A stretch of 64,000 nucleotides of DNA from Lachnospiraceae bacterium (GTDB lineage: Bacteria > Pseudomonadota > Alphaproteobacteria > RF32 > CAG-239), in assembly GCA_963594125.1 (NCBI GenBank), contig CAVBCV010000002.1, forward strand, positions 42,211-106,210. Direction: 5' to 3'. The notes below the pieces were generated by a model. The model did no database searches and was not told the DNA's origin. It was given only the letters and a program-made list of their open reading frames with translations. Below are positions 5,693 to 55,509 of this stretch, one piece after another; within the stretch, counting starts at the first letter, position 1, and every line of letters begins with the position of its first letter. Both the position numbers and the translations under genes were made by a program.

Positions 5693-8148
5693 TGAAATTA
5701 GTTATTGTAGAATCTCCGGCAAAAGCCAAAACCATTAACAAATATTTGGGTTCAGACTACAAAGTTCTGGCCAGTTTCGGTCATATTCGCGACCTGCCGA
5801 GCAAAGACGGCTCGGTTAATCCCGAGCATGATTTTGATATGACATGGGAATTAAGCCCCGGCGGTAAAAAACGACTTAATGATATTATTGCGGCATTAAA
5901 AGACTGCGACACCGTTATTCTCGCATCCGACCCGGATAGAGAAGGAGAAGCGATTGCATGGCATATTTTGGAAGAACTCACTGCCCGCAAAAAAATTGCC
6001 GGTAAAAAAATTGAGCGCGTGGTTTTTCATGAAATTACCAAATCTGCCGTAACGGAAGCAATTAAAAATCCGCGTTCCATTGACGATAACTTGGTTTCAG
6101 CTTATATGGCGCGGCGCGCGCTTGATTATTTGGTGGGCTTTACTTTGTCGCCGGTGTTGTGGCGCAAGCTTCCGGGGTCAAAATCGGCAGGAAGAGTGCA
6201 GTCAGTGGCGCTGCGTTTAATCTGCGACCGCGAAAATGAAATTGAAAAATTTAAGCCGGAAGAATATTGGACGGTTGACGTTGATTTACAAACGTCTGAG
6301 AAAGCTTTAATCCCTTCACACCTGATTAATCTTGACGGCAAAAAGCTTGAAAAATTTGACTTAAACACGGAAGAAAAAGCCCTTGCCGCCAAAGCCAAAA
6401 TTGAAGCGCAAAACTTTACGGTTAGCAATGTTGAACGCAAAAAAGCCAATCGGTATCCGGCGCCGCCGTTTACCACCTCAACCCTGCAACAGGAAGCAGC
6501 GCGCAAGTTGCGTTTTTCAGCTAAAAAAACCATGCAGGTGGCGCAAAAACTTTATGAAGACGGTTTTATCACTTATATGCGTACTGACGCGGTCAACCTT
6601 TCAAAAGAGGCTATTGCCGCCTGCCGCAACGCTATTTTAAAATATTTCGGCGACGCTTATTTGCCTAAAGTTGCCAAAGAATATAAAACCAAGTCAAAGA
6701 ATGCGCAAGAAGCGCACGAGGCAATCCGTCCGTCTGATGTGATGAACACTCCGAAAAAGATGGAAATTAAATTAGACGCTGACGCGCACAAATTGTATGA
6801 GCTGATTTGGAAACGCACAGTCGCCTGCCAAATGAATCCGGCAGTGCTTGACCGCGTTACCATTGATTCAGAATCGGCTGACAAGCAAATTTTGCTCCGC
6901 GCCAACGGACAAGTTATTGCTTTTGACGGATTTTTGAAATTGTACCAAGAAAGCAAAGATGATTCTGATGACGATGATGACAATCAACTGCTGCCGAATG
7001 TTGAAAGCGGGCAAGCCGTTGACAAAGGCGAGATTAAGCCGGAACAGCACTTTACAACGCCGCCGCCGCGCTTTACTGAAGCGAGCTTAGTTAAAAAGCT
7101 TGAAGAACTTGGAATCGGGCGTCCATCAACTTACGCCACGATTATTGCGGTTTTGCAAGAGCGCAAATATGTTCGGGTTGAAAAATTGCGTTTTATACCG
7201 GAAGACCGCGGGCGAATCGTTACCGTATTTTTGGAAAACTACTTCAAAAAATATGTTGAATACGACTTTACCGCGCAATTGGAAGAATTTTTAGATGACG
7301 TTTCCGCCGGCGAAATGGATTGGAAAAAGCTGCTTGCCGGTTTTTGGGCAAAATTTATTAAAAACGTTGACGCCGTGCAGCCTTTGCAGGTTAAAGACGT
7401 TATTAATAAAATTGACGAGGTTTTGGCTTATCACCTGTTTCCGGCTAAAGCCGACGGCTCTGATCCGCGTTTATGTCCGGAATGCGGCAAAGGTCATTTA
7501 AGCGTAAAACTCGGCAAATTCGGCGCCTTTTTAGGTTGTTCAAATTATCCGGAATGCAAGTATACCAAGCCTTTGACCGATATTAAAGATGAAGAAGCTC
7601 AATCAGCGGAAGCACCAAAGCCGGAAAGACCGGAAGACAAGCTTTTAGGCGAATATAAAACCCTGAATGTTTATCTTAAAAAAGGCCCGTACGGTTGGTA
7701 TGTACAATGGGGCGAAGACGCCACCGCAACTACCGAAAAACCCAAACGCGCCTCGTTGCCGAAAAATATTAAACCGGAAGAGCTGACTTTTGAACAAGCG
7801 GTAACCTTAATCAGCCTGCCGAAAGATTTGGGCAACGGCATTGAAGTCAACATCGGTAAATTTGGTCCTTATATTAAGCAGGGAACAAAATCGCGCTCAT
7901 TAACCGGCAATGATAACATTTTTAACATTACCGCCGAACGCGCCGCCGCTATTTTGCAGGGCGTTGCCGCCAAACCGGAAGCCAAAGTTTTAGGCAAAAA
8001 TAAAGACGGTAACGACATTTTGCTCGCAAACGGCAGGTACGGACCGTATATTAAGTGCGGCAAAACCAATTACGCCTTGCCGAAAGAATTGCACGGCAAA
8101 GAAATTTCATTGGAAGATGCGCTCAAAATTATGGCGGCTAAAAAATAA
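5692..8148 (+). CDS. topA: DNA topoisomerase I
   Basis: 818 aa. N-terminal TOPRIM (KLVIVESPAKAKTI, ILASDPDREGEAIAWH), the active-site region YITYMRTD, a C4 zinc ribbon (CPECGKG...CSNYPECKY) and C-terminal repeats. Confidence 0.95.
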   Translation: MKLVIVESPAKAKTINKYLGSDYKVLASFGHIRDLPSKDGSVNPEHDFDMTWELSPGGKKRLNDIIAALKDCDTVILASDPDREGEAIAWHILEELTARKKIAGKKIERVVFHEITKSAVTEAIKNPRSIDDNLVSAYMARRALDYLVGFTLSPVLWRKLPGSKSAGRVQSVALRLICDRENEIEKFKPEEYWTVDVDLQTSEKALIPSHLINLDGKKLEKFDLNTEEKALAAKAKIEAQNFTVSNVERKKANRYPAPPFTTSTLQQEAARKLRFSAKKTMQVAQKLYEDGFITYMRTDAVNLSKEAIAACRNAILKYFGDAYLPKVAKEYKTKSKNAQEAHEAIRPSDVMNTPKKMEIKLDADAHKLYELIWKRTVACQMNPAVLDRVTIDSESADKQILLRANGQVIAFDGFLKLYQESKDDSDDDDDNQLLPNVESGQAVDKGEIKPEQHFTTPPPRFTEASLVKKLEELGIGRPSTYATIIAVLQERKYVRVEKLRFIPEDRGRIVTVFLENYFKKYVEYDFTAQLEEFLDDVSAGEMDWKKLLAGFWAKFIKNVDAVQPLQVKDVINKIDEVLAYHLFPAKADGSDPRLCPECGKGHLSVKLGKFGAFLGCSNYPECKYTKPLTDIKDEEAQSAEAPKPERPEDKLLGEYKTLNVYLKKGPYGWYVQWGEDATATTEKPKRASLPKNIKPEELTFEQAVTLISLPKDLGNGIEVNIGKFGPYIKQGTKSRSLTGNDNIFNITAERAAAILQGVAAKPEAKVLGKNKDGNDILLANGRYGPYIKCGKTNYALPKELHGKEISLEDALKIMAAKK

Positions 8149-8149
8149 A

Positions 8150-8186
8150 TGTTACAATCCCTGTTTTAAGCAGGGATTGTTTGTAA
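8150..8186 (+). terminator. putative rho-independent terminator after topA
   Basis: Hairpin caatccctg-tttta-agcagggattg followed by tttgt, immediately after the topA stop. Confidence 0.4.
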
Positions 8187-8197
8187 GTGAGGAAAAA

Positions 8198-8491
8198 ATG
8201 GAAAAAGAACATTTAACAGAAACACAACGCTTAGCAAAAATGGACACAGCTATTGAAATTATGGCGGCGAGAATCGGCATTTGCATGCAGCGTATATTTG
8301 CAGAAGAAGAAAAGCCGGAAGCCGAGCAAAATCAAGAACTGCTCTCACGCCTTAACAAAGAAATGGTTATTTTATACGCCGAAAGAGATCGTATGTACGG
8401 CGGCGATAAAGATATACAAGAAAAAATTTACGAACAATATGCCCCTGAAGTAAAAGAATATTATTTGGGGAAGAAAAAGAATGTACGATAA
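8198..8491 (+). CDS. small helical protein, putative epsilon-type antitoxin
   Basis: 97-aa charged helical ORF (MEKEHLTETQRLAKMDTAIE...) with an RBS (gaggaaaaaATG). It lies directly upstream of, and overlaps by 11 nt, a zeta-toxin-like gene. The call rests on position and size only. Confidence 0.4.
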   Translation: MEKEHLTETQRLAKMDTAIEIMAARIGICMQRIFAEEEKPEAEQNQELLSRLNKEMVILYAERDRMYGGDKDIQEKIYEQYAPEVKEYYLGKKKNVR

Positions 8492-9437
8492 ATATAAACT
8501 GAGCGATGAACAACATAATGCTGTCTTAAATAAAATTTGCCGCAATTTGTTTTATGGCAAAACTCCGGCAGCGAATCCGCAAATATTTATTTTAGGCGGA
8601 CAACCCGGCGCCGGAAAAAGCATTTTGACAGAAAGAAGTTATCATAAATTAGGTAATAGCAACTTTGTTGTTATTAACAGCGATGAATTTCGTACTCAAC
8701 ACCCTAACGCGCAAGAAATTTTTGATAACCATGATAAAGACTTTGCCGCTTATACCGACCCTGATGTCAGGGTATGGGGCTCTGAAGTTTTTGACGCCGC
8801 CATCAAAGGGCGCTATAATATTATTTTTGAGGGCACCATGCGTACCACGCAAATTTGCGAAACCATTAAACGCCTGCAAGCTGAAAAATACACGGTTAAT
8901 ATTTTGGCAATGGCAGTGCCTGAAATTAAAAGCCGTATTTCAATTTATGCCCGCTATCAAGAGCAACTTGAAAATTATCCGATTGCTCGCTTTACCAGTC
9001 GTTTTTCACACGATGCCGCCTATCATGGCATGCTTGACACTTTGCAAAAAATTGAAAATGAAAAACTTTATGACACCATTACAATTTGTAACCGTAACGG
9101 AGATGTATTATTTAAAACCGGTGATAAAAATGTTGTAAATGCGATAAAAAAAGAACGTGAAAAACCGTTATCAGCATCTGATGCTTCTGATTTATTGCAA
9201 GATTGCAATGTGTTGCTTAAAAAAATGACAGAGCGCGGCGAATCCTCTGAATATATTGAAGACCTGCAATCTTTACGGCAACAAGTCAGGCAAAAAAGCT
9301 TAAATGAACGCTGTGAAAACTGTTTTGCCAATATTCATAATATGATACAAGAAGTAAAAAACAGCGACACTTGCGCAGCGCCACATTCTAAAGAAACTCC
9401 TTATAAAACTCCTACTCCCCAAAATCACGAAAGATAG
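8481..9437 (+). CDS. zeta toxin family protein (UDP-GlcNAc kinase-type toxin) with C-terminal extension
   Basis: Walker A P-loop in the zeta context: FILGGQPGAGKSILTE. Zeta-like core follows (VINSDEFRTQHPN, NIIFEGTMRT). 318 aa, so about 40-50 aa longer than canonical zeta/PezT. Confidence 0.7.
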   Translation: MYDKYKLSDEQHNAVLNKICRNLFYGKTPAANPQIFILGGQPGAGKSILTERSYHKLGNSNFVVINSDEFRTQHPNAQEIFDNHDKDFAAYTDPDVRVWGSEVFDAAIKGRYNIIFEGTMRTTQICETIKRLQAEKYTVNILAMAVPEIKSRISIYARYQEQLENYPIARFTSRFSHDAAYHGMLDTLQKIENEKLYDTITICNRNGDVLFKTGDKNVVNAIKKEREKPLSASDASDLLQDCNVLLKKMTERGESSEYIEDLQSLRQQVRQKSLNERCENCFANIHNMIQEVKNSDTCAAPHSKETPYKTPTPQNHER

Positions 9438-9462
9438 ATTAACTTTGCATAAAGTTAAACAA

Positions 9463-9510
9463 GCTGAATTTCGGATTATGAACATTCAGTTTTATTTAAC
9501 TTTTTTATTT
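9463..9510 (+). terminator. putative terminator after zeta-like gene
   Basis: Hairpin gctgaat-ttcggattatgaac-attcag followed by a T-rich run. Confidence 0.35.
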
Positions 9511-9529
9511 TACTGTCTGTTTTAGGCGT

Positions 9530-9720
9530 AAAAATACGTCTAGGGCGTCAGAACCCTTTTCATAGATAGCCGCATTTGTGTATGGCGACTAAAAAATTAT
9601 GCACCGCTTCTGTTCTCACGGACGGATGTCGGTGAATAAGGCTCAGCCAAATAAGCCGAGCCGTCTTTATCTATGAACGGTTTCTGAACATCCGCCCACC
9701 TATATCGGTGGGTTTTGTTT
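9530..9720 (+). ncRNA. structured intergenic element (possible small RNA) ending in an intrinsic terminator
   Basis: About 190 nt with no ORF. A long-range stem pairs catagatagccg (9560s) with cgtctttatctatg (9660s). There is an internal hairpin ggctcagcc-aaataa-gccgagcc. The 3' end is cccacc-tatatc-ggtggg plus TTTTGTTT (9695-9719). The RNA class is not identified. Confidence 0.2.
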
Positions 9721-9743
9721 AACCATATACAAGGATGTTTAAT

Positions 9744-10166
9744 ATGAAAAAACTGTTTTTATTTTTAATCCTCAGCCTCTGTGCCGGTGTTCTATGCAGC
9801 TGTGCTACCATAATGAGAGAAAACAGCCAAATTGTGGCTGTTAAATCTAATGTTGAAAAGGTTGATATTAGAATTACCAACCGAAGCGGCGAACTAATAT
9901 TTGAAGGACAAACTCCAACAACATTACCTCTTAAAACATCGGTAAAAGGTGGATATTTCAGCCCCGAGCAATATACCATAACTGCGTCAAAAGATGGTTT
10001 TAAAACTCAAACCCATGTTATTGATTGGCATGTCAGCGGTTGGTATTGGGCAGGTAATTTTGTAATCGGCGGATTAATCGGATATTTGATTGTTGACCCA
10101 ATGACCGGCGATATGTTCTATCTTGATGAAGAAGCAAATTTAAGTTTAGTACCTGAAAAAAAATAA
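9744..10166 (+). CDS. lipoprotein, function unknown
   Basis: MKKLFLFLILSLCAGVLCSC signal peptide with a lipobox, about 140 aa. Followed by a clear terminator. Confidence 0.6.
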   Translation: MKKLFLFLILSLCAGVLCSCATIMRENSQIVAVKSNVEKVDIRITNRSGELIFEGQTPTTLPLKTSVKGGYFSPEQYTITASKDGFKTQTHVIDWHVSGWYWAGNFVIGGLIGYLIVDPMTGDMFYLDEEANLSLVPEKK

Positions 10167-10175
10167 TATAAGAGG

Positions 10176-10203
10176 CGGTCAAACACCGCCTTTTTATTAT
10201 ACC
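10176..10203 (+). terminator. rho-independent terminator
   Basis: aggcggtcaaacaccgcct hairpin followed by ttttatt. Confidence 0.5.
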
Positions 10204-10290
10204 AATATTTTCGCTATTCTGATGATTCATTATATTTTAATCAGAATCGTGTAATGTACTTTTAATAAAACATAGTAAAAGGTTTATACA

Positions 10291-11280
10291 ATGGAACAAC
10301 AAGGCGAAATTATCATTTATCAGTCGGCTGACGGCAAAAACAAACTGGATGTAAAATTAGAAAATGAAACAGTTTGGCTTTCTCAATCTCAATTAGTTGA
10401 CTTATACCAAACCAGTAAATCCAACATCAGCGAACATATAAAAAATATTTTTAATGAAGGAGAACTATCTGCTGATTCAGTTGTTCGGAAATTCCGAACA
10501 ACTGCCGCTGACGGTAAAAAATATGAAGTATCATATTACAATCTTGATATGATTATTTCCTTAGGATACCGCATAAAGTCTTCTATTGCCACCCAATTCC
10601 GCATTTGGGCAACTGAACGCATAAAGGAATATATCATCAAAGGATTTACCATTGATGACGAACGTTTAAAGCAAAACGGCGGTGGAAATTATTGGAAAGA
10701 ATTGTTAGACCGCATCAGAGATATCCGCTCCTCTGAAAAAGTTTTATACCGTCAGGTTTTGGATTTATACGCTACAAGTTATGATTATAATGCCAAAGCA
10801 CCGGAAACTATTGAATTTTTTAAGGTTGTCCAAAATAAATTACATTTTGCCGCACACGGTCATACAGCATCAGAAGTTATATATGAACGCGCAAATGCCG
10901 ATAAGCCTTTTATGGGATTGACCACATTTTCCGGCAACCTACCGACTAAAGCCGAAGCCAAAATTGCTAAGAATTATTTAAGCGAAAAAGAATTAAAAGT
11001 ACTGAACAATCTCGTTTCCGGATATTTTGACTTTGCAGAAATCTATGCCGTCCGTCACGAACATTTATATATGAAAGATTACCTTAAACAGTTAGACAGC
11101 ATTTTATCTGCAACCGGCGAAAATATCTTACAAGGCGCAGGTAAAATCAGTCATAAAAAAGCAATGGAAAAAGTTGAGGCTGAATATAAAAAATATCAAG
11201 AAAAGACCTTAACTCCGATAGAACAAGCATATCTTGAAAACTTGAAAAGTTTGGAAAAAAAGATAGAAGACAAAAAATAA
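10291..11280 (+). CDS. RhuM family virulence/DNA-binding protein
   Basis: N-terminus IIIYQSADGKNKLDVKLENETVWLSQSQLVDLYQTSKSNISEHIKNIFNEGEL is the hallmark opening of RhuM-family proteins. 329 aa. Confidence 0.75.
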   Translation: MEQQGEIIIYQSADGKNKLDVKLENETVWLSQSQLVDLYQTSKSNISEHIKNIFNEGELSADSVVRKFRTTAADGKKYEVSYYNLDMIISLGYRIKSSIATQFRIWATERIKEYIIKGFTIDDERLKQNGGGNYWKELLDRIRDIRSSEKVLYRQVLDLYATSYDYNAKAPETIEFFKVVQNKLHFAAHGHTASEVIYERANADKPFMGLTTFSGNLPTKAEAKIAKNYLSEKELKVLNNLVSGYFDFAEIYAVRHEHLYMKDYLKQLDSILSATGENILQGAGKISHKKAMEKVEAEYKKYQEKTLTPIEQAYLENLKSLEKKIEDKK

Positions 11281-11320
11281 CAGTTATGATGTATTTGAAA
11301 AATTAATATTTTTTATTTGA

Positions 11321-11418
11321 CAATACAACTTATGCACAGCACGGACTCGTAAATATTGCAAAAAAAAAACGCGAGCTAAAATCTTCTCAAATTTAACTTT
11401 TTGAGAGGATTTTAGCTC
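11321..11418 (+). promoter_or_regulatory. conserved pilin-gene 5' module, copy 1 (promoter/5'UTR; RBS-sequestering hairpin)
   Basis: The sequence caatacaacttatgcacagcacggactcgtaaatattgc-A10-cgcgagctaaaatcttctcaa-atttaacttt-ttgagaggattttagctc-ATG. The arms gagctaaaatcttctcaa and ttgagaggattttagctc form an 18-bp stem with one G-U pair. The GAGAGGA Shine-Dalgarno sits in the 3' arm, and the stem ends 1 nt before the ATG. Near-identical copies lie at 21724-21820 and 58938-59034. Confidence 0.6.
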
Positions 11419-12054
11419 ATGTATACACAATCGGGAAGAAGTATGGTAGAGATGCTCGGCGTCTTAGCGATAATTGGCGTCTTATCTGTTGGGGCGATAA
11501 GCGGCTATGGGAAAGCGATGTTTAAGTATAGACTTAATAAACAAACTGAACAGCTAAATCAGGTTATCGGCACGATTGTACGCTATAAAAGCAGCTTAAT
11601 GCTTAACCCCGCTTCTGCCGACGCGCCGGTTTCTGATTATAATATAGTTTCGTTACTTAAAAAGCTCGGTGAAATTCCAAAGGAAATGTATATCAATGAT
11701 GATAGATTTATCAAAGATGCTTTCGGAACCGAATATCAAATTTATCATCGCAATACCGATAAAAGCATTACTTTACGAACTGTAGATTTAGGCAGAAACG
11801 AAACTGGTTTTCAAATTTGCAAAAATTTATATTTAATTGCCAAAGAATGGCACCAAGAATTATACGTCATAATTGTTGCAGCTTATAAAGGTGATACGTA
11901 TTCATCAAAAGGCTGTTATTTGGGCGATAACAGCACATATCAAGGCTGCTCCTCTAAAAGATATATTAAAGACTTAAAGCTGAGCGAGCTTGACGATATT
12001 TGCCGGACTGCCGCCGATGAGCAAGGGCATTATTCGGTATCAATAGATTTTTAG
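11419..12054 (+). CDS. type IV pilin-like protein (prepilin, short leader), paralog 1
   Basis: MYTQSG|RSMVEMLGVLAIIGVLSVGAISGY has the class III signal: Gly at -1, Glu at +5 and a hydrophobic alpha1 helix. Four Cys in the C-terminal part. 211 aa. Confidence 0.7.
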   Translation: MYTQSGRSMVEMLGVLAIIGVLSVGAISGYGKAMFKYRLNKQTEQLNQVIGTIVRYKSSLMLNPASADAPVSDYNIVSLLKKLGEIPKEMYINDDRFIKDAFGTEYQIYHRNTDKSITLRTVDLGRNETGFQICKNLYLIAKEWHQELYVIIVAAYKGDTYSSKGCYLGDNSTYQGCSSKRYIKDLKLSELDDICRTAADEQGHYSVSIDF

Positions 12055-12061
12055 ATACATT

Positions 12062-12090
12062 AAAGGCTCCGATTGCTCGGAGCCTTTTTA
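12062..12090. terminator. bidirectional terminator between convergent genes
   Basis: aaaggctccgattgctcggagccttttta, a perfect hairpin flanked by A/T runs on both sides. Confidence 0.5.
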
Positions 12091-12104
12091 TAAGATTTCA
12101 GCAA

Positions 12105-12833
12105 TTATTTTCTATCGCCCATTAATCTTAACAAGTACAAGAACAAGTTAATAAAATCAAGGTACAATGAAAGCGCGCCTGAAACAGCTTTGCGGGTAAC
12201 CATATCATCGCTGTCGGCAGATGCATACATATTGCGAATCGTCTGAGTATCATATGCGGTTAAGCCGACAAAAATGGCAACCCCGATATAAGACAATGTG
12301 TAATACATAGCCTCACTTTGCATAAAAAAGTTTACAATCGTGGCGATAATCAAACCGATTAAACCCATGATTAAAAACGAACCAAAGCCTGTTAAATCGC
12401 GCTTAGTGGTATAGCCGTATAAGCTCATGGCGCCAAACATAGCGGCGGTAATCAAAAATACGCGGGTCATACTTGAAGCGGTGTACATTAAAAGAATCGG
12501 GGTTAAAGACGCGCCCATAACCGCCGAGAATAGCCAAAACACTCCATTAACCTGCGCCGGAGAGCCTTTAGCGACAACCCATTGAAACGCAAATATCATA
12601 ATCAACGGAGCAACTAACAAAAGCCAACCAAGACCGGACAAACTTACGGTTCCTGCCGCTTGATTAATATTGAAAAAAGCCTCAATTAAAGACGTGTTGG
12701 CAATTAAATAAGCAACCAAAGCCGTTAAGCATAAGCCTGCCGCCATATAGTTATAAACTTTAACCATAAAGCCGCGCAAACCTTCGTCTATGCCGCTCCG
12801 TTCAACTGCGGAAGTATAAGATTTAGTTTCCAT
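12105..12833 (-). CDS. Bax inhibitor-1/YccA family membrane protein
   Basis: 242 aa with 7 predicted TM helices. The BI-1/YccA-type C-terminal region carries conserved charged residues (GVAIFVGLTAYDTQ...). Confidence 0.75.
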   Translation of the reverse strand: METKSYTSAVERSGIDEGLRGFMVKVYNYMAAGLCLTALVAYLIANTSLIEAFFNINQAAGTVSLSGLGWLLLVAPLIMIFAFQWVVAKGSPAQVNGVFWLFSAVMGASLTPILLMYTASSMTRVFLITAAMFGAMSLYGYTTKRDLTGFGSFLIMGLIGLIIATIVNFFMQSEAMYYTLSYIGVAIFVGLTAYDTQTIRNMYASADSDDMVTRKAVSGALSLYLDFINLFLYLLRLMGDRK

Positions 12834-14306: not shown

Positions 14307-15089
14307 ATGAAAAAAATTGGTCTGACGGTTTTGTTGGCACTGGGGTTGACGGCATGCGCAACCGGCAAAAATATGTCTGATGACTCCGCTGACGACAACG
14401 CTCTTGAAACATATAACCGCGCAGTGTTTGAATTTAACTATAAATTAGACAAGGCGGTTATAAAACCGGTGGCAAAAGGCTATAAAAAGGTTACCAACCA
14501 ATTTGTGCGCGACAGAGTGAGCACTTTTTTTAACAATTTGGAAGAACCGGCTTACGCAATTAATAATTTGCTGCAGGGCAAAGTTAAAGACAGCGGCACT
14601 TCAGTCGGGCGCTTTGCCGTAAACTCCACGCTTGGCTTGCTCGGGTTGTTTGATGTTGCTGACGGTTGGGGCTTAAATAAAAAGAAAAATTCGTTTGACG
14701 CCACCTTGGCTTATTACTGCACACCGGACGGACCGTTTTTTATGGTTCCGGTGTTAGGTCCGGCAACTCCGCGCTACTTAGTCGGATGGGCGGGAGACGC
14801 TTACGCCAGCCCGATGTATTGGGCGTTGGTTGACGTTGATGACAGCGGAGTTGACGCCGCCGTTTGGGGCTCGGTCGCGCTTAAATACATTAATATCAGA
14901 GCTGAAAGTTTGGCTTTAACCGACAGCTTAGAAGAAGGCGCGGTTGATTTTTACGCCACCATGAAATCAGCCTTTATGCAAAATCGGCAAAAATTTACCG
15001 GTATTTGCGATGTGAAAAACAATCAAGACAATGTGCCAAGTTATGACTTTGACTTTGGGTACGATGATGTTGATGATGACTTTGAATAA
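14307..15089 (+). CDS. mlaA: MlaA/VacJ family lipoprotein
   Basis: Lipobox LTAC. NRAVFEFNYKLDKAVIKPVAKGY region typical of VacJ/MlaA. 260 aa. Confidence 0.8.
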   Translation: MKKIGLTVLLALGLTACATGKNMSDDSADDNALETYNRAVFEFNYKLDKAVIKPVAKGYKKVTNQFVRDRVSTFFNNLEEPAYAINNLLQGKVKDSGTSVGRFAVNSTLGLLGLFDVADGWGLNKKKNSFDATLAYYCTPDGPFFMVPVLGPATPRYLVGWAGDAYASPMYWALVDVDDSGVDAAVWGSVALKYINIRAESLALTDSLEEGAVDFYATMKSAFMQNRQKFTGICDVKNNQDNVPSYDFDFGYDDVDDDFE

Positions 15090-15110: not shown

Positions 15111-15710
15111 ATGAAAAAAATTTTATTTACCTTTTTAACCGCTTTGTTGCTCGCCGCAAATTCAGCAAATGCCGAAATTAATGCGCAAAAAGCTGAGGAT
15201 TTTGTTAAAAATGTGACCAAACAAGGCATTGAAGAAATTATCAACTCAGATGTTTCGCAGGCTGAAAAAGATCAGCGCTTCGCAAAGCTTTTTAATGAAT
15301 ATCTTGACTTAGACTTTATCGGGCGGTTTGTTTTAGGGCGCTATTGGAAAACCGCGACACCTAAACAACGCACTGAGTTTGTTAACGTTTACCGCGAGTT
15401 AAACATTAAAACATGGTCAAAACGTTTTGATGAATTTAAGGGCAAAACCTTTGTTTTTAACGGCGCCTCGCCTTCATCCTCTGAGAATCAGATTTTTGTA
15501 AACTCGGTTGTTCCGATGGATCAGGGCGCACCGGCAAAAGTGGTATGGAGAGTTAAAGAAACTAACGGGCAATTTAAAGTGGTTGACATTATTATTGAAA
15601 ATGTAAGCTTAGCAATTACCGCCCGAAATGAATATACCGCTTATATTCGCAAGTCACCGAACGGGCTTGACGGATTAATCAGCGACCTTAAAAAGAAAAG
15701 CCAGCAATAA
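15111..15710 (+). CDS. mlaC: phospholipid-binding protein MlaC (Ttg2D family)
   Basis: Signal peptide. FIGRFVLGRYWKTATPKQRTEF motif of toluene-tolerance Ttg2D/MlaC proteins. Adjacent to mlaA. Confidence 0.75.
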   Translation: MKKILFTFLTALLLAANSANAEINAQKAEDFVKNVTKQGIEEIINSDVSQAEKDQRFAKLFNEYLDLDFIGRFVLGRYWKTATPKQRTEFVNVYRELNIKTWSKRFDEFKGKTFVFNGASPSSSENQIFVNSVVPMDQGAPAKVVWRVKETNGQFKVVDIIIENVSLAITARNEYTAYIRKSPNGLDGLISDLKKKSQQ

Positions 15711-15801
15711 CGCGGCTGATTTACCGATTTTAGAATGAAATAATTGACAATCGGCGAGATTTCAGCTATCATATTTGTATAATTATTTTCTGGGGGCAAA
15801 G

Positions 15802-16773
15802 ATGCAAAAGTTTAAAACATTTTTCATTTTGTTAGCGGGCATGTTATTTATGAGCTCAGCGGCAACAGCGCGAGTTTGCTTTTTAGCCAGTACGGACGAA
15901 GAAACCGGCTGTTTGGTCAGCGGTGATGAGTACAATTATGAAAACAGTGAAAGATGCCGCGGTATGGCTCCTTGCGAACACCCCAGTAAAGGCGCTCCAA
16001 CCTGTATTGATAACAGCATCAGCTATTTTTACGCTGATAACTGCTGCTCCAACACCGCGCTATATGAAAAATGCGAAGGCACCGGTAAAGTTTGCAAAGG
16101 TTCGGTCTGCGCAAGTTCAGTCAACGGCGTTAACTACAATTACTGCAAAATCGGAAACTGTGTTTGTGATTCTTCATATTCAAAAACTTGCGACGCATCA
16201 GAAGGCTTAATCGGCGTCGGTGAGCCTTGTGACGGCAAATATAAAAGCTGCCGTTGCGATTCAAGCTATCATACTTGTGACAAAAACGCAACATGCACCG
16301 GTAGTTCATGCACAGATGATGGCGGCACTAAGTTTCAATCTTGCGAATGTCCGGCTATCGGCGGCGATTGGGTATCTGACCCGAGCGCTTGTTGCGGCTC
16401 ATACACAACCAGTTGCACCAACCGACCGAGCGGAAAAAGAGTTTATAAATGCGCCCCGGCATTTACTCCGTCATGCGTTTGCGGCACGATTAATGATACC
16501 AATAAATCGCAATGCGTAAGCGGCTGCACCGATTCAAGATATGAATATGTCGGTAAGGTTCCGGCTAATGTTGAGTGCAATGACTTCACAAGAGGAATTT
16601 CAGGAGACTGCGGAAGCGCTTGTCATTGCAAATCAGGTTATTGGGATTACTCGTCAAGTTGCGATACGCAAAGCAGTAACGTTTGCGGCGAGTTGGGCTA
16701 TACTGACACCTCTTGCACGGGTGACTGGATTGCCTGCCCGTTTGACCCATCGGCTAAAAAATGCTTGAACTAA
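15802..16773 (+). CDS. secreted cysteine-rich repeat protein, unknown function
   Basis: MQKFKTFFILLAGMLFMSSAATA signal peptide. About 323 aa with roughly 55 Cys. Recurring CxCDSSYxxCD / CxGSxC modules. No recognised catalytic motifs. Confidence 0.6.
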   Translation: MQKFKTFFILLAGMLFMSSAATARVCFLASTDEETGCLVSGDEYNYENSERCRGMAPCEHPSKGAPTCIDNSISYFYADNCCSNTALYEKCEGTGKVCKGSVCASSVNGVNYNYCKIGNCVCDSSYSKTCDASEGLIGVGEPCDGKYKSCRCDSSYHTCDKNATCTGSSCTDDGGTKFQSCECPAIGGDWVSDPSACCGSYTTSCTNRPSGKRVYKCAPAFTPSCVCGTINDTNKSQCVSGCTDSRYEYVGKVPANVECNDFTRGISGDCGSACHCKSGYWDYSSSCDTQSSNVCGELGYTDTSCTGDWIACPFDPSAKKCLN

Positions 16774-16799: not shown

Positions 16800-16838
16800 T
16801 AACGGCAGGGCTTAAAGTTCTGCCGTTATTTTTATAAA
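16800..16838 (+). terminator. rho-independent terminator
   Basis: aacggcagggcttaaagttctgccgtt hairpin followed by atttttat. Confidence 0.5.
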
Positions 16839-16934: not shown

Positions 16935-17294
16935 ATGATTATCAACAGTAATGATGTTTTGCAAAGAAATATTTTAACAAATAAATGCTTTTATCAAACG
17001 ACCGCTCAAATTATGCACGACTTTGAGCAGAAGGGTTATGCTAACTCCGCAGACGAAACGGCTAAAGTTATTGCCGCTTACCATAACATGGTGCAAAAAA
17101 AATCTAAAAATAATTACAGCAAAGATTATAACGAGGCATTCAGCAAAATTGACAACGCCATAAAAAGTATGGCGAACAAAGTTTTTTACACCTATGACAA
17201 ACAGAGCTTTGATTACGCTTATCGTTCATTTCAAAATTTTGATTACATTAACGCCATTATCGGGCGGCAACGCCTTAAAAAGAACTCTTGGTAA
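16935..17294 (+). CDS. hypothetical protein
   Basis: 120-aa ORF (MIINSNDVLQRN...) downstream of GGAGGAG. No recognisable domain. Confidence 0.4.
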   Translation: MIINSNDVLQRNILTNKCFYQTTAQIMHDFEQKGYANSADETAKVIAAYHNMVQKKSKNNYSKDYNEAFSKIDNAIKSMANKVFYTYDKQSFDYAYRSFQNFDYINAIIGRQRLKKNSW

Positions 17295-17388: not shown

Positions 17389-18366
17389 ATGAAACAAATA
17401 TCAGTTATCGGCTGCGGCCGTTGGGGAACTTTTTTGGGTTGGTATGCCGCCAACTATTGCGTTGACAGCGTTATTTTATATGATATTCCGACCTCACCTA
17501 ACTTTATTGAACTGCAAGAAACCAGACAAAATCCATATTTGCAATTAAGCGATAATATGACCTTAACTCCGGATTTAAACAAAATTTTGCAAAATGATTA
17601 CATCATTATCTCAATCGGTTGCCAACACTTGCGCGAACTTGCCAAACAGCTGAACGGCTACAATCTTGACGGCAAATACTTTTTGCTTGCCATGAAAGGG
17701 CTTGAAGAACCGAGCGCCAAAATTTTGGTAGACGTGTTTAATGAAGAGATTAAACAAAATATTCATGTCGCCTGCTTGGGTGGTCCCGGACACGTGCAAG
17801 ATTATATGAAAAAAGTTCCGTCCTGCGCGGTTATTGACAGCTATGAAGAAGATACCAAAGACAAATGGATTAAGTTAATGCAAAGTAATTTAATTCGTTT
17901 TTACTATGGCGATGACGTTATCGGCAACCAAATCGGCGCCGCGCTTAAAAACGTTATCGGTATTGCCGCCGGAATTTTGGACGGCTTGGATTGGTACGGG
18001 CTTAAAGGCGCGTTAATGGCGCGGGCTCCGGTTGAAGTTGGGCGCCTGATTAAGCACTTTGGCGGCAACCCGTTTACCGCTTATGGTTTGGCGCATCTTG
18101 GCGATTATGAGGCAACATTGTTTTCAAAGCACAGCCACAACCGCATGTTTGGCGAAATGTTTGCCAAAGGCGAGCGCTTCGGCAAATTGGCAGAGGGCGT
18201 TGACACCTTAAAAGCCGTAAAAGCCATTGCCGATAAAGAAAATATTGATATGCCGATTTGTCAGGCTTTGTATAAAGTTATTTTTGAAGACGCTGACATT
18301 AAAGAAACTATCCGCGCGATGTTTGAACGCGGACTCAAAAAAGAATTTGAGTATATTTCAAAATAA
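17389..18366 (+). CDS. gpsA: NAD(P)H-dependent glycerol-3-phosphate dehydrogenase
   Basis: MKQISVIGCGRWGT N-terminal Rossmann motif. Central NVIGIAAGILDGL motif and C-terminal region of GpsA. Confidence 0.9.
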   Translation: MKQISVIGCGRWGTFLGWYAANYCVDSVILYDIPTSPNFIELQETRQNPYLQLSDNMTLTPDLNKILQNDYIIISIGCQHLRELAKQLNGYNLDGKYFLLAMKGLEEPSAKILVDVFNEEIKQNIHVACLGGPGHVQDYMKKVPSCAVIDSYEEDTKDKWIKLMQSNLIRFYYGDDVIGNQIGAALKNVIGIAAGILDGLDWYGLKGALMARAPVEVGRLIKHFGGNPFTAYGLAHLGDYEATLFSKHSHNRMFGEMFAKGERFGKLAEGVDTLKAVKAIADKENIDMPICQALYKVIFEDADIKETIRAMFERGLKKEFEYISK

Positions 18367-21820: not shown

Positions 21821-22588
21821 ATGTATACATATTTTAGCCGCCTTTTACACCGCACGCCGTCACACTCCGACTTGATCGGAGTGTCCAGGTGGGGGAAATT
21901 TGCTAATTTGGTTGACCTGGACCATCGGGTCAAGCCCGATGGTGACAACATTGTGAATGCTGGTAGGTCTATGGTGGAAATGCTTGGCGTGCTCGCGATT
22001 ATCGGAGTGCTGAGTGTTGGTGCAATAAGCGGTTATAGCAAAGCCATGTACAAATATAAACTTAACAAACAAGCTGAACAGCTTAATACTGTAATAAATG
22101 CTGTTGCCCGCAATGCGCACAGCTTTGATAATTTGTTAGCCAATAAAGGCGCCTTTTATATAACTGATACTTTTGTTAAAATGGGTGAAATTCCAACTGA
22201 AATGCAATACAGCGAACATTATATCCGTGATGTGTTTAATCTTTTTTGGACAATAAGTATACTAAACTATGACACCGGCACTTCATTAAATTTATCAGCT
22301 AACGAAGAAGGCACTTTAAAAAATAAATCAGCAAATAATTTGGACATTTGCCGCAATATTATTACTGTTGCTAAGGAAAATTCAGACAGTATCGCTTCAG
22401 TCTCAAACGTGATTTATAATCAAGACAGCGATAACTATACCGCAACCTCTTTATATGGCGATGCGTACTGCCTATCGGGCAGACCTTGTTTAAGAAACTT
22501 GAGCCTTGACGATATTTATAACTTTTGCACAAAATTTACCGGCGGCGACAAGCTGCCTCAGCTTAAAATAACATGGTGGATTAAGTAA
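21821..22588 (+). CDS. type IV pilin-like protein, paralog 2 (long N-terminal extension)
   Basis: The ORF from the conserved ATG reads MYTYF...(about 47 aa)...NAG|RSMVEMLGVLAIIGVLSVGAISGYSKAMYKYKLNKQAEQL. The mature part is homologous to paralog 1. Four Cys in the C-terminal part. An alternative internal GTG/ATG start closer to the G|R site is possible. Confidence 0.65.
   Translation: MYTYFSRLLHRTPSHSDLIGVSRWGKFANLVDLDHRVKPDGDNIVNAGRSMVEMLGVLAIIGVLSVGAISGYSKAMYKYKLNKQAEQLNTVINAVARNAHSFDNLLANKGAFYITDTFVKMGEIPTEMQYSEHYIRDVFNLFWTISILNYDTGTSLNLSANEEGTLKNKSANNLDICRNIITVAKENSDSIASVSNVIYNQDSDNYTATSLYGDAYCLSGRPCLRNLSLDDIYNFCTKFTGGDKLPQLKITWWIK
21831..21961 (+). mobile_element. RPE-like palindromic insertion, in-frame in the pilin 5' region (copy A)
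   Basis: About 130 nt absent from paralog 1. It forms three consecutive hairpins: cactccga-cttga-tcggagtg, ccaggtggggg...ttgacctgg and ccatcggg-tcaagc-ccgatgg. The reading frame is preserved. Confidence 0.45.
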
Positions 22589-35504: not shown

Positions 35505-38500
35505 TTACTCTTCACTTCCGCAATAGGGTTCTTCAAAGTTGTTCAAATTGTTCTGAAACTCTTTTTCAGCCTCGTCTTCATATTTTGAACGCGCCTGTTC
35601 ATCAGCCCGAGCGGTTTTGATTTTTTCAGATAGTTCGGAGTTCGGCTCGCTGTTATCGTCTAAGTCAACCAACTCTTCATTATCCATTTGCAAAGAGCCC
35701 ATTATGTTCTTTACCTTTTTAATTTTTTCTTCCAAGGCGTCATTTAACGGCTTAACCTCGGCAATTTGCTTTGCGCCCTCAGCGGTTAAAGCGTTTTTGC
35801 GACTGTCAAGCGCCGCGGAAATGGTGTTGAAAGTGCCCTCATCCGATAAGTCAAAATCAGCCGGAGGAGTATAGCCTATGTCAGCAAATTTCTTTACCAA
35901 GAACTCGCGAGTTTCATTCATTTTAACTTCAAGCTCATCTACCGAATCCTGATAATGAGTTTCCATTTCAACAAAGTTCAGATAATCGCCGAAAACGTTG
36001 CGGGTAAACAAAGCCTTGCGGTAAGTATTCATTTTATGAATATCCTCATCGCTGGTGTCGTCACTGTCATCAGCTTCAGCCTCGTCAAGATATTGCATGA
36101 TTTTTACAATAGTTTTGCTAAAGTCTAAGCCTCCGTTGGTTACCTTAGGCGGGAAGGTTATGACCGCATCGCCGGTATAGGACAAGATTTGCGCCAATTC
36201 GCTCCTACCTTCCGACTTATCGGTTGATTCATTTTCAACCGCGCCGGTCTTAAAATCAGCGCCATCATTAAAGGTGATATAACCTCTGCCCATAATTACC
36301 TTGACTGATTTAACATCAGTACATTTTTTGGTGGTAACCTTTTTGTGGTAGACTTTATATTCGCCGTTTTTAATATCAACCACATAATTGCCGTATGCAC
36401 ACGGGTATTTATCGCCGCGGAGCACTTCATCACCGGCATCGGTGTTGTTCATGCCGCCTAAAACCTCAGTAACATCAACATCGCGCTCAACAAAGCCGTT
36501 CGGCTCTAAAACAAGTTTCCAAATCGGCGGAATTTCTTGTCCGTAGGCTAAAAAGTCAGCGCGGGTGGTTTTCCATAAATCTGATTTAACAACATTGCCG
36601 AAATCAACTCCGTCAAAGTGAACAACCTCTCGCATCGGCGGAGTGTAGCTGATGGTTATGCCTTTCGGCGCCTGAAAATCAGCGAGTTTCGGGTCAAGTC
36701 CGACAAAGTAATTATCATCAGCCTGATAGCATTTTTCACCGCCGCACATTTGTTCAACAATAGCGGTTGCCGCCAATTTGGCTAAAGCTTTAACATCGCC
36801 GAACAGAAGCAAATCAGAACCGGCAAAGGTTGCGTTTACTTCTTGCATGCTTTGCATCATTTCGCGGTGAATTTGCAAAATTTGCTGATGTCCCGCCAAT
36901 GTGTAACGAGCATCACCTAAGCCTTGAATTTTGCCATAAGCCTCATCAACGCTGGCAAGAGCCGCGGTTTTAAAGGCGTCAATCGCATTATCGGTAACGC
37001 CAAGCACCGCCGACAAATAAGTTTGTTTAAGCTCAGCCTCTTCCGTTGCAAAGCCGGAAGCTTCCGAAACAAAGCTGCTGCCGGAAAGCGAGTGCTGCAC
37101 AATGCTATCTTGCTGCTGTTGCATTGCTTGCTTTAAGGCTTGCATATTTTGATATTCAAGAGCCGAAGCATTGGCGGCATAATCGCTCTTTAAACGGGCG
37201 ATTTTTTCATCCAGACTTTCAAGCTGAGAGCGCAACTTGTCTATTTGCTCGCGCTTAGCCTCAATGCCGTTCAAGGCTGTTTCTTCTTTAGCCTTGGCTT
37301 CCTCAGCCTTCTTTTGCATATAAGCAACGCCTTGTTCGCCGCGTTTTTCAAAGCTCTTGTCATAAGCAGATGATTCTTTGCTCTTTTCCTGTGAAATTTT
37401 AATAGTCTGCTTTTGATAATCAGCGTTTGCCTCCGCTTCCTGACGCTCTTTGACCGCGTCATTATATTTTTCCTTCATGCCGTTAAGCTCAAGGTTAGCG
37501 GCGTCAAGACTTGCGTAAACGGAGTTTTTCTGATTTTCAAGCACGGCTAAACTTGCCAGAAAATCATCACGCAATTTTTTAACCGCAGCATCGGCTTTTT
37601 GCTTAGCCGCCGCCAAGTTTGAAACCGGCGCATCTGCGGCAACAGCGGCTTCGGCAAACGGAAGCATATTAGTTAAAGCCTCAGCGTTAAATTCTTTAAC
37701 CGTATCAATGGTGAACTCTTCAGGCAATTCAGGCTCGCCGTTAAAATCAGTGATGGCGCCATTGATAGACATTGCCAAATTAACGGCGACAACTCTTAAA
37801 TCAGCGTTATTGATATATTTTTTGATATTTTCATACTTTAATTTAAGATACTGGTCATAAACATGTTTTTCATCGGTCCAAATCGGGTACGCGCCTTTCA
37901 TGCCGCCCCATTTAGGGCTGGCAGACGCCATATCCGCGCCGATTGCTTTCGCCATTTCAGCGCCAAGCTGCCAGGTCATCAGCTCCTCGCGGCGGTTTTC
38001 GGCTTCCGCTTTAGGCTCGTCGCTCGGGCGCAATAATGAACTGTCGCCCAAGCCGCTTGCATTTTCCTGCTTTAAGCGTTCGGTATTTTTTTCCATATTT
38101 TCAATATTGCCGTCACCGTCCGCTATTAAGCTGGTGGAGTAATCATCTGAGGTCAGCTCCAAGGTTTTTACCGCTTTGGCGGCTTTATAGGCTGAAATCA
38201 GCCAGCCGCTCATACCGGCGCGGTTTGAATATTTGTTAATGCCGTAGCTGCTGCAAATTTTGTTGCCGCAGAGAATATCGCCTTCCTGCAAATGTTTTAA
38301 GTTTTCAGGCGTTACCGGTTTGCCGCTGTCGCAGTAAAGGTTAGTGCCGGTATAGCTGCACCCCTCGCCTGCCCAAACATCAACCGGTGTTGCATAATAT
38401 TTATTTACAAATTTAACGGCGCACTGCTCTGATTTTAACAGTTGCTCAATGGCTTTTTCATGAAGTTTTTTCATTTTAGCATATTCTTCAAAGCCGCGCT

Positions 38501-50177: not shown

Positions 50178-50264
50178 TAAGTTTTGCGCGGCGCTTGATT
50201 ATTTGAAATTCAACCTGTATGATGGAACAACAATGTAATGAAGTATGACATAGGGGAATTAAAT

Positions 50265-51020
50265 ATGAATAATAAATTACTCTTATCCGCCTGCCTGTTG
50301 TGTTTGGGTATGGCCGGCTGTGTGCGCTATAATTCAGCTTACACGGCTCAATGCAACGGTCCTGAGTGCCCGATGGACGTGTATATTGATGAAACATACG
50401 CCGCCATTCCGCCGGAGGGATATATCTGCCAAAATGCGGCAGACCCCAATATGTGTCCGAACGACCCGTATGTGAACTACACCCGCACCGCCGCCGATTT
50501 TAGAGAATACGGCGAAAGAACTCCCCGCGACAGATTAGTCTCGCAGGCCGGCGCAGGCAATAACCTCTCGGCGTCTATTCCCCCGTCAGTTGAAGATGAG
50601 GTTATTGAGTATGAAGAACAAGCAGGCGTTGCCGCTGAACCTGAAGTGCCAGAAGAAGAAAAAGTTGCTCCTGAGGACATAAAAGTTGATGAAACTATTG
50701 TTGCCGATACAGAAAATGATTCTGATGAAAATTCAGATGATGTGGAAGATCCGGTTCAGGATTGGCTTGCTGAAGAAGGTCAAAACCTTAAAGCTTTGCT
50801 TACTGAATGGAGCGAGCAGTCTGGCTGGCGCTTGGTTTGGAACACCAACCGCAATTATGTTTTGAACGCCGGAGCTATGTTTAGAGGACGCTTTGCCGAT
50901 GTCAGCTCGGCTTTAATCAGAGCTTTCGCCCGCGCCCGTCCGGCTCCGATTGCAACATTTTATAAAGGAAACCGCGTATTAGTCGTTGAAACGATGGAGG
51001 ATGAAAATGCGTATGAATAA
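50265..51020 (+). CDS. lipoprotein with TcpQ/PilL-like C-terminal domain
   Basis: MNNKLLLSACLLCLGMAGC lipobox. Acidic middle region. C-terminal LKALLTEWSEQSGWRLVWNTNRNYVLNAGAMFRGRFADVSSALIRAF resembles TcpQ/PilL-type pilotin-like domains that accompany type IVb secretins. Translationally coupled to the secretin gene. Confidence 0.5.
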   Translation: MNNKLLLSACLLCLGMAGCVRYNSAYTAQCNGPECPMDVYIDETYAAIPPEGYICQNAADPNMCPNDPYVNYTRTAADFREYGERTPRDRLVSQAGAGNNLSASIPPSVEDEVIEYEEQAGVAAEPEVPEEEKVAPEDIKVDETIVADTENDSDENSDDVEDPVQDWLAEEGQNLKALLTEWSEQSGWRLVWNTNRNYVLNAGAMFRGRFADVSSALIRAFARARPAPIATFYKGNRVLVVETMEDENAYE

Positions 51021-52626: not shown

Positions 52627-52644
52627 CAGTAAAGGAATAATACC

Positions 52645-55495: not shown

Positions 55496-55509
55496 TAAGG
55501 GTACGCTCA

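Follow-up and report, generated by a model that had tools for sequence, protein, structure and literature searches.

The 64,000-nucleotide stretch of contig CAVBCV010000002.1 analysed here (the window) encodes, at positions 15802-16773 of the plus strand including the stop codon, a cysteine-rich precursor of 323 amino acids (aa). The gene is real and constrained: the open reading frame (ORF) lies where the original prediction had placed it, and ~25 full-length relatives of its product are known. The precursor contains 39 cysteines, which amount to 12.1% of its residues and 13.0% of the mature 300 aa; the ~55 cysteines (17%) reported earlier were an overcount. Across the other 48 large ORFs of the window, 180 of 19,494 residues are cysteine (0.92%, with a maximum of 2.9%), and the protein is thus enriched ~13-fold over the window background. 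Disulfide-rich extracytoplasmic repeat proteins are known as a general kind, but the family described below, two of its modules and its cap motif are absent from Pfam, NCBIfam, the PDB and the literature searched.

A longer reading from a TTG at 15775 is possible on paper; the ATG is favoured because a GGGGG run resembling a ribosome-binding site (15792-15796, plus strand) lies 5 nt upstream of it, and because all orthologues in the alignment start at the same methionine. The N-terminus of the precursor reads MQKFKTFFILLAGMLFMSSAATA, followed by RVCFLAS after the predicted cleavage site. As had been claimed, residues 1-23 (15802-15870, plus strand) look like a Sec-type signal peptide: the sequence begins with MQKFK (K3, K5), continues with a 12-residue hydrophobic stretch and ends in SSAATA, with AxA at -3/-1 and a predicted signal peptidase I site between ATA and the following R, while AlphaFold2 (AF2) puts a helix at residues 4-20. 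The protein would therefore appear to be exported. A lipoprotein reading of the conserved Cys26 was rejected, since the residues before it are A-R-V (Val at -1, Arg at -2) and do not form a lipobox ([LVI][ASTVI][GAS]C). The protein has a pI of 4.8 and a grand average of hydropathy of -0.47. Leu, Ile and Met together make up only 6.8% of the protein, which argues that it has no hydrophobic core; aromatic residues account for 8.7%, invariant Tyr and Trp among them.

From the mature N-terminus onwards the protein can be divided into a series of cysteine-rich segments, all encoded on the plus strand. The first is a cap motif, RVCFLA-x(acidic)-C (residues 24-37; 15871-15912), evident from the family alignment, in which R24, V25, C26, F27, L28 and C37 vary little or not at all. 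A wider form of the motif, [A]-[RKS]-[VI]-C-F-[LI]-x(4-12)-C, is recognizable at the start of the cysteine-rich part in 59 of the 168 collected proteins, many of them otherwise different, where it stands either directly after the signal peptide or behind a cysteine-free leader of 25-150 residues ('...QLASVCFITD...'). Despite its high conservation, the cap has low confidence in the AF2 model; it may serve for docking or be a site of processing. It is followed by an N-terminal cysteine-rich domain of beta-hairpins with ten cysteines (residues 48-119; 15943-16158), modelled with predicted local distance difference test (pLDDT) scores of 84-91; many proteins match the family profile only from position 1 to ~180-216.

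Two repeat units come next. Unit 1 (residues 120-152, CVCDSSYSKTCDASEGLIGVGEPCDGKYKSCRC; 16159-16257) scores 46.6 bits (E 2.7e-16) against a hidden Markov model (HMM) derived from 49 non-family proteins with 89 units between them, and the degenerate unit 2 (residues 150-183; 16249-16350) is found by the same model at E 0.0018. Unit 2 uses the closing CxC of unit 1 as its own first CxC and carries a lineage-specific cysteine, Cys165. A comparison of the corresponding segments of the family alignment with hhalign (probability 96.7%, E 3.6e-10) identifies residues 120-152 and 150-183 as true homologous tandem units. The unit is 31-33 aa long and follows the pattern CxC..Y..C..GxG..C.GKY..CxC, with the consensus CvCpssYkytC...GxG..CdGKYksCkC; all 263 distinct units keep the cysteines at positions 3, 11, 24 and 31. 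The cysteine at position 1 is missing from first units and that at position 33 from last units, and the autonomous unit therefore comprises four cysteines. The three motifs quoted in the original prediction are all present, at residues 115-131, 150-160 and 276-288, and its repeated CxCDSSY-type modules hold good for two tandem copies; a third-copy candidate at residues 274-312 is doubtful (hhalign probability 45%), and the remaining CxC sites are partial echoes of the unit only. There is no repetition within the gene at the DNA level, and the two CxCDSSY copies, 90 nt apart, are 64% identical as DNA, which indicates that the duplication is old. A recent DNA duplication or a low-complexity artefact was excluded by the same DNA-level repeat analysis.

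The middle cysteine-rich region (residues 184-273; 16351-16620; pLDDT 77-95) yields no internal repeat match by hhalign. Its invariant positions are W190, C205, C217, C225, C227, C238, C242, D244, Y247, G251 and C270, and T206, N207, K216 and T243 are invariant only among the nine closest relatives. Behind it lies a half-unit of the form CxCxxGYW...C (residues 274-287, CHCKSGYWDYSSSC; 16621-16662), which matches unit 1 with an hhalign probability of 45% and alternates with GKY units in the relatives P0040 and P0184. The C-terminus is formed by a four-cysteine knot of 27 aa (residues 295-321, CGELGYTDTSCTGDWIACPFDPSAKKC; 16684-16764) with the pattern CaeLGYtetsC......CPFD.....C, detected at E 6.5e-14 by an HMM made from 49 units of 48 non-family proteins. 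In those non-family proteins the LGY/CPFD module mostly lies near the N-terminus.

No Pfam or NCBIfam family matches the window protein, even at E<=10, in agreement with the earlier statement that it has no catalytic signatures; scans of 16 module-bearing relatives against the same collections assign the modules to no family, and PDB sequences gave chance matches only (E >= 0.07) to profiles made from the complete family, from the repeat unit or from the C-terminal knot. A word-indexed search of 5.8 billion proteins returned nine relatives, none of them named, and an exhaustive profile search of 1.84 billion cluster representatives returned 162 proteins at E<=1e-3, which fall into several groups. 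One comprises the ~25 full-length relatives, many with variable cysteine-rich C-terminal extensions, which run to 1543 aa in P0017 and to 1840 aa in its cluster mate P0164. A second matches only positions ~115-185, in up to 11 tandem copies, and a third only positions ~293-321. Overall, more than 100 other unnamed metagenomic proteins have the modules, in five cases (P0033, P0038, P0046, P0061 and P0194) together with an Lcl_C domain. No source names any relative, and neither the family nor the module-sharing proteins have a Pfam or NCBIfam model or a solved structure. The full-length set can be defined as a 'GKY/LGY' family by a signal peptide, the RVCFL cap, the N-domain, at least one GKY unit, the middle domain, the LGY/CPFD knot and ~38 conserved cysteines, all of which the window protein displays according to the full-length alignment with 24 relatives and two independent module HMMs.

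The search for orthologues that the original prediction had proposed places the closest copies in human-gut metagenome-assembled genomes (MAGs) titled 'uncultured Alphaproteobacteria bacterium' (MGYG-HGUT-00610) and 'Proteobacteria bacterium'. Little is known about these uncultured gut Alphaproteobacteria, and literature searches on bacterial cysteine-rich repeats in Alphaproteobacteria and on this gut clade returned nothing relevant. The suggestion of an intracellular bacterium did not hold up, as nothing examined points to intracellular life, and a role as host-interaction factor likewise found no support and stays hypothetical.

In the full-length set, each of 38 cysteines is retained by 21 or more of the 25 relatives, whereas C165 is found in just nine of them. 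The number of core cysteines in the 25 sequences is 38 in thirteen, 40 in six, 39 in four, and 36 and 37 in one each, and is even in 20 of the 25. All proteins with 40 cysteines have C165 plus an extra cysteine at position 178, and Cys178 never occurs without C165 among the 25 sequences. The cysteines therefore change in pairs, and in the alignment C165 and C178 look like a pair gained inside repeat 2. In the window protein and the three relatives closest to it, C165 is present but position 178 is Phe; this makes 39 cysteines, or 38 in P0001, the one among them that also lacks C115, and C165 has probably been left as one unpaired thiol in this lineage. A further reading, pairwise co-loss of C259/C274 and of C295/C305, was withdrawn because P0009 and P0029 still have C274, in a displaced position (CxC to CC), and because alignment rows show that P0015 has exchanged its entire C-terminal module; parity and the C165/C178 pair are unaffected. 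Within the window protein the cysteines are arranged in five CxC, two CC and two CxxxC motifs, and CxxC and CxxCH are found nowhere in it. With only 3 His and no Pfam or NCBIfam match besides, it does not belong to a common periplasmic metal-binding or redox family; membership of one would have refuted the original prediction.

An AF2 model computed from 25 full-length sequences reached a pLDDT of 81.2 and a predicted template modelling score (pTM) of 0.51. Residues 50-280 mostly score 85-96 and confidence is low only at residues 18-47 and ~283-290; the signal-peptide helix aside, the secondary structure consists almost entirely of short beta-hairpins. The low pTM is what would be expected of an elongated, multi-module chain. 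An earlier model from nine sequences (pLDDT 53) was too poor for use, and the Foldseek search made with it was meaningless. When the better model was compared with known structures, as had been advised, the top Foldseek neighbours were NELL/EGF, TNF-receptor CRDs and complement CCP modules, all of them ectodomains built as disulfide ladders, but none is a significant fold match (best E 0.046, TM 0.17, probability <=0.16). Relatives give borderline Pfam scores for RANK_CRD_2 (27-30 bits, cut-off 26.8) and EGF_MSP1_1 (25.7 bits); the former occurs in P0040 and P0184 only, where no single stretch passes, and RANK_CRD_2 is not found by Pfam in the window protein. The likeness to eukaryotic cysteine-rich repeats noted in the original prediction therefore stands as a resemblance of style, to which the weak structural neighbours and borderline scores both point, whereas homology is not demonstrated.

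The gene is under clear purifying selection, with ratios of non-synonymous to synonymous substitution rates (dN/dS) of 0.079 and 0.101 against the two closest loci (L001 and L002, respectively; 90-91% protein identity). These values are the highest or second-highest of the neighbourhood, where the other genes range from 0.012 to 0.092. Compared with more distant loci, protein identity drops to 52% (L003), 49% (L007), 43% (L011), 40% (L010) and 35% (L008), and ~12 points of what remains are due to the fixed cysteines alone; at the same loci MlaC retains 66-76%, MlaA 59-65%, DegT 85-91% and GpsA 88%. The cysteine-rich gene is thus the fastest-diverging of its neighbourhood (35-52% versus 59-92% for its neighbours).

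Upstream of the gene lies a sigma-70-type promoter (TTGACA-17 nt-TATCAT; 15744-15772, plus strand) with 11 of 12 consensus matches, and downstream of it an intrinsic terminator with a 13-bp stem, a 3-nt loop and a T-run (16800-16838, plus strand). A promoter with 11-12 of 12 matches occurs at the equivalent site in seven of eight orthologous loci, though the spacer has otherwise diverged; the exception is L010, whose gene call has a 5' extension. A hairpin and T-run follow the gene in eight of eight loci, and in L007 and L011 a terminator-like hairpin with T-run after mlaC overlaps the -35 box. Judged by these signals, the gene probably forms its own transcription unit with strong independent expression. 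Co-transcription in an operon with mlaA and mlaC is unsupported in view of this separate promoter and terminator, which also weaken any operon-type link to the mla genes.

The neighbourhood itself is one of core genes, as originally predicted, with the cysteine-rich gene between mlaC and gpsA (all plus strand). The outer-membrane lipoprotein gene mlaA of the Mla lipid-asymmetry system (14307-15089; Pfam MlaA, 4.7e-63) and mlaC, encoding the periplasmic lipid shuttle (15111-15710; Pfam MlaC, 1.7e-39), precede it, and a 119-aa ORF without Pfam match or signal peptide (16935-17294) separates it from gpsA (17389-18366), the next named gene. The 119-aa ORF is 92% identical in L003 and 88% in L007, which equals or exceeds GpsA (88%) and is far above MlaA and MlaC. 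Farther away, two LemA proteins and a DUF2207 protein are encoded downstream, and DegT and Bax1-I upstream on the other strand. The order mlaA, mlaC, cysteine-rich gene is unchanged throughout the five gene contexts that were inspected, even where protein identity has fallen to 35% (the loci being the window with L001 and L002; L003-L006 with P0004; L007 with P0007; L008 with P0009, at 35%; L010 with P0019; and L011-L012 with P0017). In L003-L008, L010 and L011 mlaC is immediately 5' of the gene, and mlaA is upstream in every locus that reaches far enough. The right flank varies and consists of the 119-aa ORF and gpsA, of dnaA on the opposite strand, or of a bundlin/PilS-type pilin gene. The module-only proteins P0032 (L013) and P0080 (L014) are not encoded beside mla genes. 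In L013 an uninterrupted run of eight ORFs similar in length (~250 aa each; 6543-12465), some with weak nucleotidyltransferase matches (NTP_transf_2, MTPAP-like), comes after the gene for the tandem-repeat protein P0032.

On balance, we favour, with a confidence a little above even, a reading in which the product is abundant and exported and acts, without enzymatic activity, as a disulfide-braced scaffold of a new family, providing the cell envelope or surface with a rigid stalk or a binding protein. Following Sec export and removal of the signal peptide, an acidic chain of 300 residues almost without hydrophobic core would be stitched by ~19 intramolecular disulfides into an elongated, rod-like string of small beta-hairpin modules, in the order N-terminal cap, N-domain, two 31-33-aa GxG/GKY units, middle domain and 27-aa LGY/CPFD knot. 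The GKY unit, the LGY/CPFD knot and the cap recur in >100 other secreted multi-domain proteins, some of them with the adhesin-type Lcl_C domain, and in closer relatives long, variable cysteine-rich arrays extend the protein. The product would resist proteases and stress, its cysteine framework remaining fixed while the loops between cysteines diverge fast. Such a protein would be unusual, since bacterial proteins with ~13% cysteine and ~19 predicted disulfides are very rare.

Several observations weigh against this reading. The window lineage has an odd count of 39 cysteines, no Dsb or VKOR gene occurs within the 64-kb window, and the four cysteines per repeat unit would also suit one metal(Cys)4 site per unit. 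Neither an outer-membrane anchor nor a beta-barrel, autotransporter or sorting domain was found in the protein; the default location is therefore the periplasm, and display at the surface or release would need another route.

The rival that survives best, although we think it unlikely, is an accessory factor of the Mla system, i.e. a periplasmic or outer-membrane-associated partner of MlaA and MlaC such as a tether or scaffold at the outer-membrane end of the shuttle. It draws on the order mlaA-mlaC-cysteine-rich gene, which is constant in five contexts while the right flank changes, and on the common strand and short spacers. MlaY/MlaZ of Pseudomonas are reported as a precedent for functional coupling of a gene that adjoins an MlaA-like gene (PMC10374164). 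However, the conserved promoter and terminator, and the hairpin after mlaC in L007 and L011, argue for separate transcripts, and the genomes are close enough (DegT 85-91% identical) that synteny may be inherited rather than selected. Variable C-terminal extensions and fast divergence are unlike a core machine subunit, the module-only relatives do not adjoin mla genes, and no Mla-linked cysteine-rich protein was found in the literature searched. The window protein shows no homology to MlaA-F by Pfam.

Somewhat less likely still is a periplasmic metal-binding protein or thiol buffer, whose cysteines, kept reduced, would bind Zn, Cu, Cd or Fe-S at a single (Cys)4 site in every module. The 12% cysteine, the five CxC and two CC motifs and the exactly four cysteines in each autonomous repeat unit and in the C-terminal knot would all suit this role, and disulfide formation is less assured in a host that lives in the largely anoxic gut. 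It is countered by the lack of CxxC knuckles, the 3 His, the invariant Tyr, Trp and Gly and the confident beta-hairpin model, which set the protein apart from metallothioneins; by the gain of cysteines in twos (C165 with C178) instead of fours; and by the absence of any metal-binding family match in Pfam or NCBIfam. Type IV pilins usually carry a C-terminal cysteine pair that forms a disulfide in the periplasm, and the type IV pilin paralogues of the window have such a pair, which suggests that the organism does form periplasmic disulfides. We favour ~19 structural disulfides over metal because the protein appears to be exported and is acidic, lacks CxxC, has 3 His and invariant Tyr, Trp and Gly, and has no hydrophobic core.

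A secreted colonization or host-interaction factor, released for instance through the type IVb pilus machinery of the window with RVCFLA as docking or secretion signal, is improbable. TcpF of Vibrio and CofJ of enterotoxigenic Escherichia coli are exported in this way by means of secretion signals, and the window holds both a Tcp/Bfp-like type IVb pilus cluster (48390-58899) and pilin paralogues, with a bundlin/PilS-type pilin gene directly 3' of the cysteine-rich gene in L011. The mature N-terminus, invariant yet predicted to be disordered, the fast divergence, the variable length and the gut-associated organism would fit as well. All of this is circumstantial, however: the pilus cluster is >30 kb distant, the protein has no TcpF or CofJ homology and no Pfam match at all, and elsewhere RVCFL-type motifs lie 25-150 residues into the chain, which ill suits an N-terminal secretion signal.

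Finally, a horizontally acquired eukaryotic EGF/TNF-receptor-type protein for host mimicry is very improbable, because the top Foldseek neighbours (NELL, CD40, Fas, HVEM, RANK, TNFR1 and Jagged), the borderline RANK_CRD_2 and EGF_MSP1_1 scores among relatives and the fit of CHCKSGYWDYSSSC (residues 274-287) to the PROSITE EGF_2 pattern, C-x-C-x2-G-[FYW]-x(4,8)-C, are outweighed by zero EGF or TNFR Pfam matches of the window protein at E<=10, empty PDB profile searches, a vertically inherited core neighbourhood with a GC content of 0.41 in the 2-kb windows covering the gene (window-wide range 0.35-0.48), and relatives that are all unnamed metagenome or MAG sequences and whose examined contexts consist of bacterial genes.

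A bolder version of the disulfide-scaffold reading, with the protein as founder of a new disulfide-ladder fold family and as a highly expressed organizer of the envelope or surface, either coupled to Mla or docked via RVCFLA as a colonization factor, is in our view also unlikely. If the disulfide ladder is true, the modules would be new bacterial scaffolds, compact in build and highly stable, that might interest protein engineers, the family would mark oxidative-folding capacity in gut anaerobes, and its fixed place after mlaA-mlaC would be a testable lead to an unrecognized envelope function. Should the protein turn out to be no more than a structural component of the periplasm in one clade, the gain is a useful annotation, namely a new domain family.

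The window contains further gene clusters. The pilus cluster at 48390-58899 (plus strand) encodes TcpQ, a secretin, PilO, a T2SSE ATPase, a T2SSF platform protein and a bundlin/PilS-type pilin, and an additional T2SSE-family ATPase is encoded at 59904-60863 (minus strand). Type IVb prepilin paralogues are dispersed at 11419-12054, 21821-22588 and 59035-59832 (plus strand), have 'GRSMVEMLGVLAIIGVLSVGAI' in common and bracket both the cysteine-rich locus and the secretion and pilus region; those at 21821-22588 and 59035-59832 are 41% identical to each other, and the L011 pilin (11113-11799 of that locus), directly 3' of the cysteine-rich gene there, is similar to them. A large type IV secretion cluster at 22581-48007 (minus strand) encodes VirB11, CagX/VirB9, two VirB8, VirB4 and two TrbC/VirB2 pilins, together with a 1435-aa TrbI/VirB10 with seven five-fold beta-flower stretches, such a giant decorated VirB10 being unusual, a 1371-aa protein with beta-flower, DUF3659 and RHS-like matches, and a 1352-aa protein with zero Pfam matches (35505-39563). 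A zeta-toxin family gene (8481-9437, plus strand) is overlapped by a small upstream ORF (8117-8491) that is a possible antitoxin, and is followed by a RhuM-family gene (10291-11280, plus strand); the set lies between topA and the pilin and Bax1-I genes.

Among known systems, metallothioneins have few or no aromatic residues and little regular secondary structure, and Csp metal stores are helical bundles lined with cysteines; the 8.7% aromatics, the lack of CxxC and the confident all-beta-hairpin model distinguish the window protein from both, and the absence of CxxC and CxxCH together with zero Pfam matches sets it apart from c-type cytochromes, Fe-S proteins and thioredoxin folds. Cysteine-rich repeats of the Myxococcus type and of other bacteria, Giardia VSP and furin-like repeats share with it the principle of extracytoplasmic repeats with paired cysteines. 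These repeats are built on CxxC, which is absent from the window protein, and none of their Pfam or NCBIfam models matches it.

EGF modules and TNFR CRDs resemble the window protein in that all form elongated chains of ~30-40-residue modules with short beta-hairpins, 4-6 cysteines each and a CxC followed by an aromatic residue. The window protein differs in its spacing, C-x-C-x7-C-x12-C-x6-C-x-C, in its invariant GxG and GKY, and in being a bacterial protein in a vertically inherited neighbourhood without significant sequence or structure match. Pfam EGF, EGF_CA, cEGF and hEGF are all missing from it at E<=10; the only score of this kind, cEGF at 20.5 bits (cut-off 26.6), falls in the C-terminal extension of the relative P0019. 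EGF domains have a two-hairpin fold with six cysteines bonded 1-3, 2-4 and 5-6; the EGF chains of Jagged and NELL appear in Foldseek only at E 0.05-2.6 with TM <= 0.17, and CD40, Fas, HVEM, RANK and TNFR1 at E 0.7-5 with a probability <= 0.15.

In Chlamydia, the disulfide-linked envelope proteins OmcB and OmcA give mechanical stability, and OmcB is also an adhesin. Like them, the window protein has a signal peptide and is a cysteine-rich and apparently non-enzymatic protein of a Gram-negative envelope, and it may be regarded as a functional analogue, with a cysteine density ~3 times that of OmcB. There is no Pfam or NCBIfam match of the window protein to Chlam_OMP6 or OmcA and no gene for a lipoprotein partner near its own, and intermolecular cross-linking would be by analogy only. 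The secreted multi-domain proteins with Lcl_C (DUF1566, PF07603), such as the Legionella collagen-like adhesin Lcl, offer a link of a different kind: the five proteins named above combine tandem arrays of the GKY unit with this domain. The window protein itself lacks Lcl_C and is connected with them through the module only; this sharing suggests that surface or adhesive proteins use the GKY unit to form a stalk or to space their domains.

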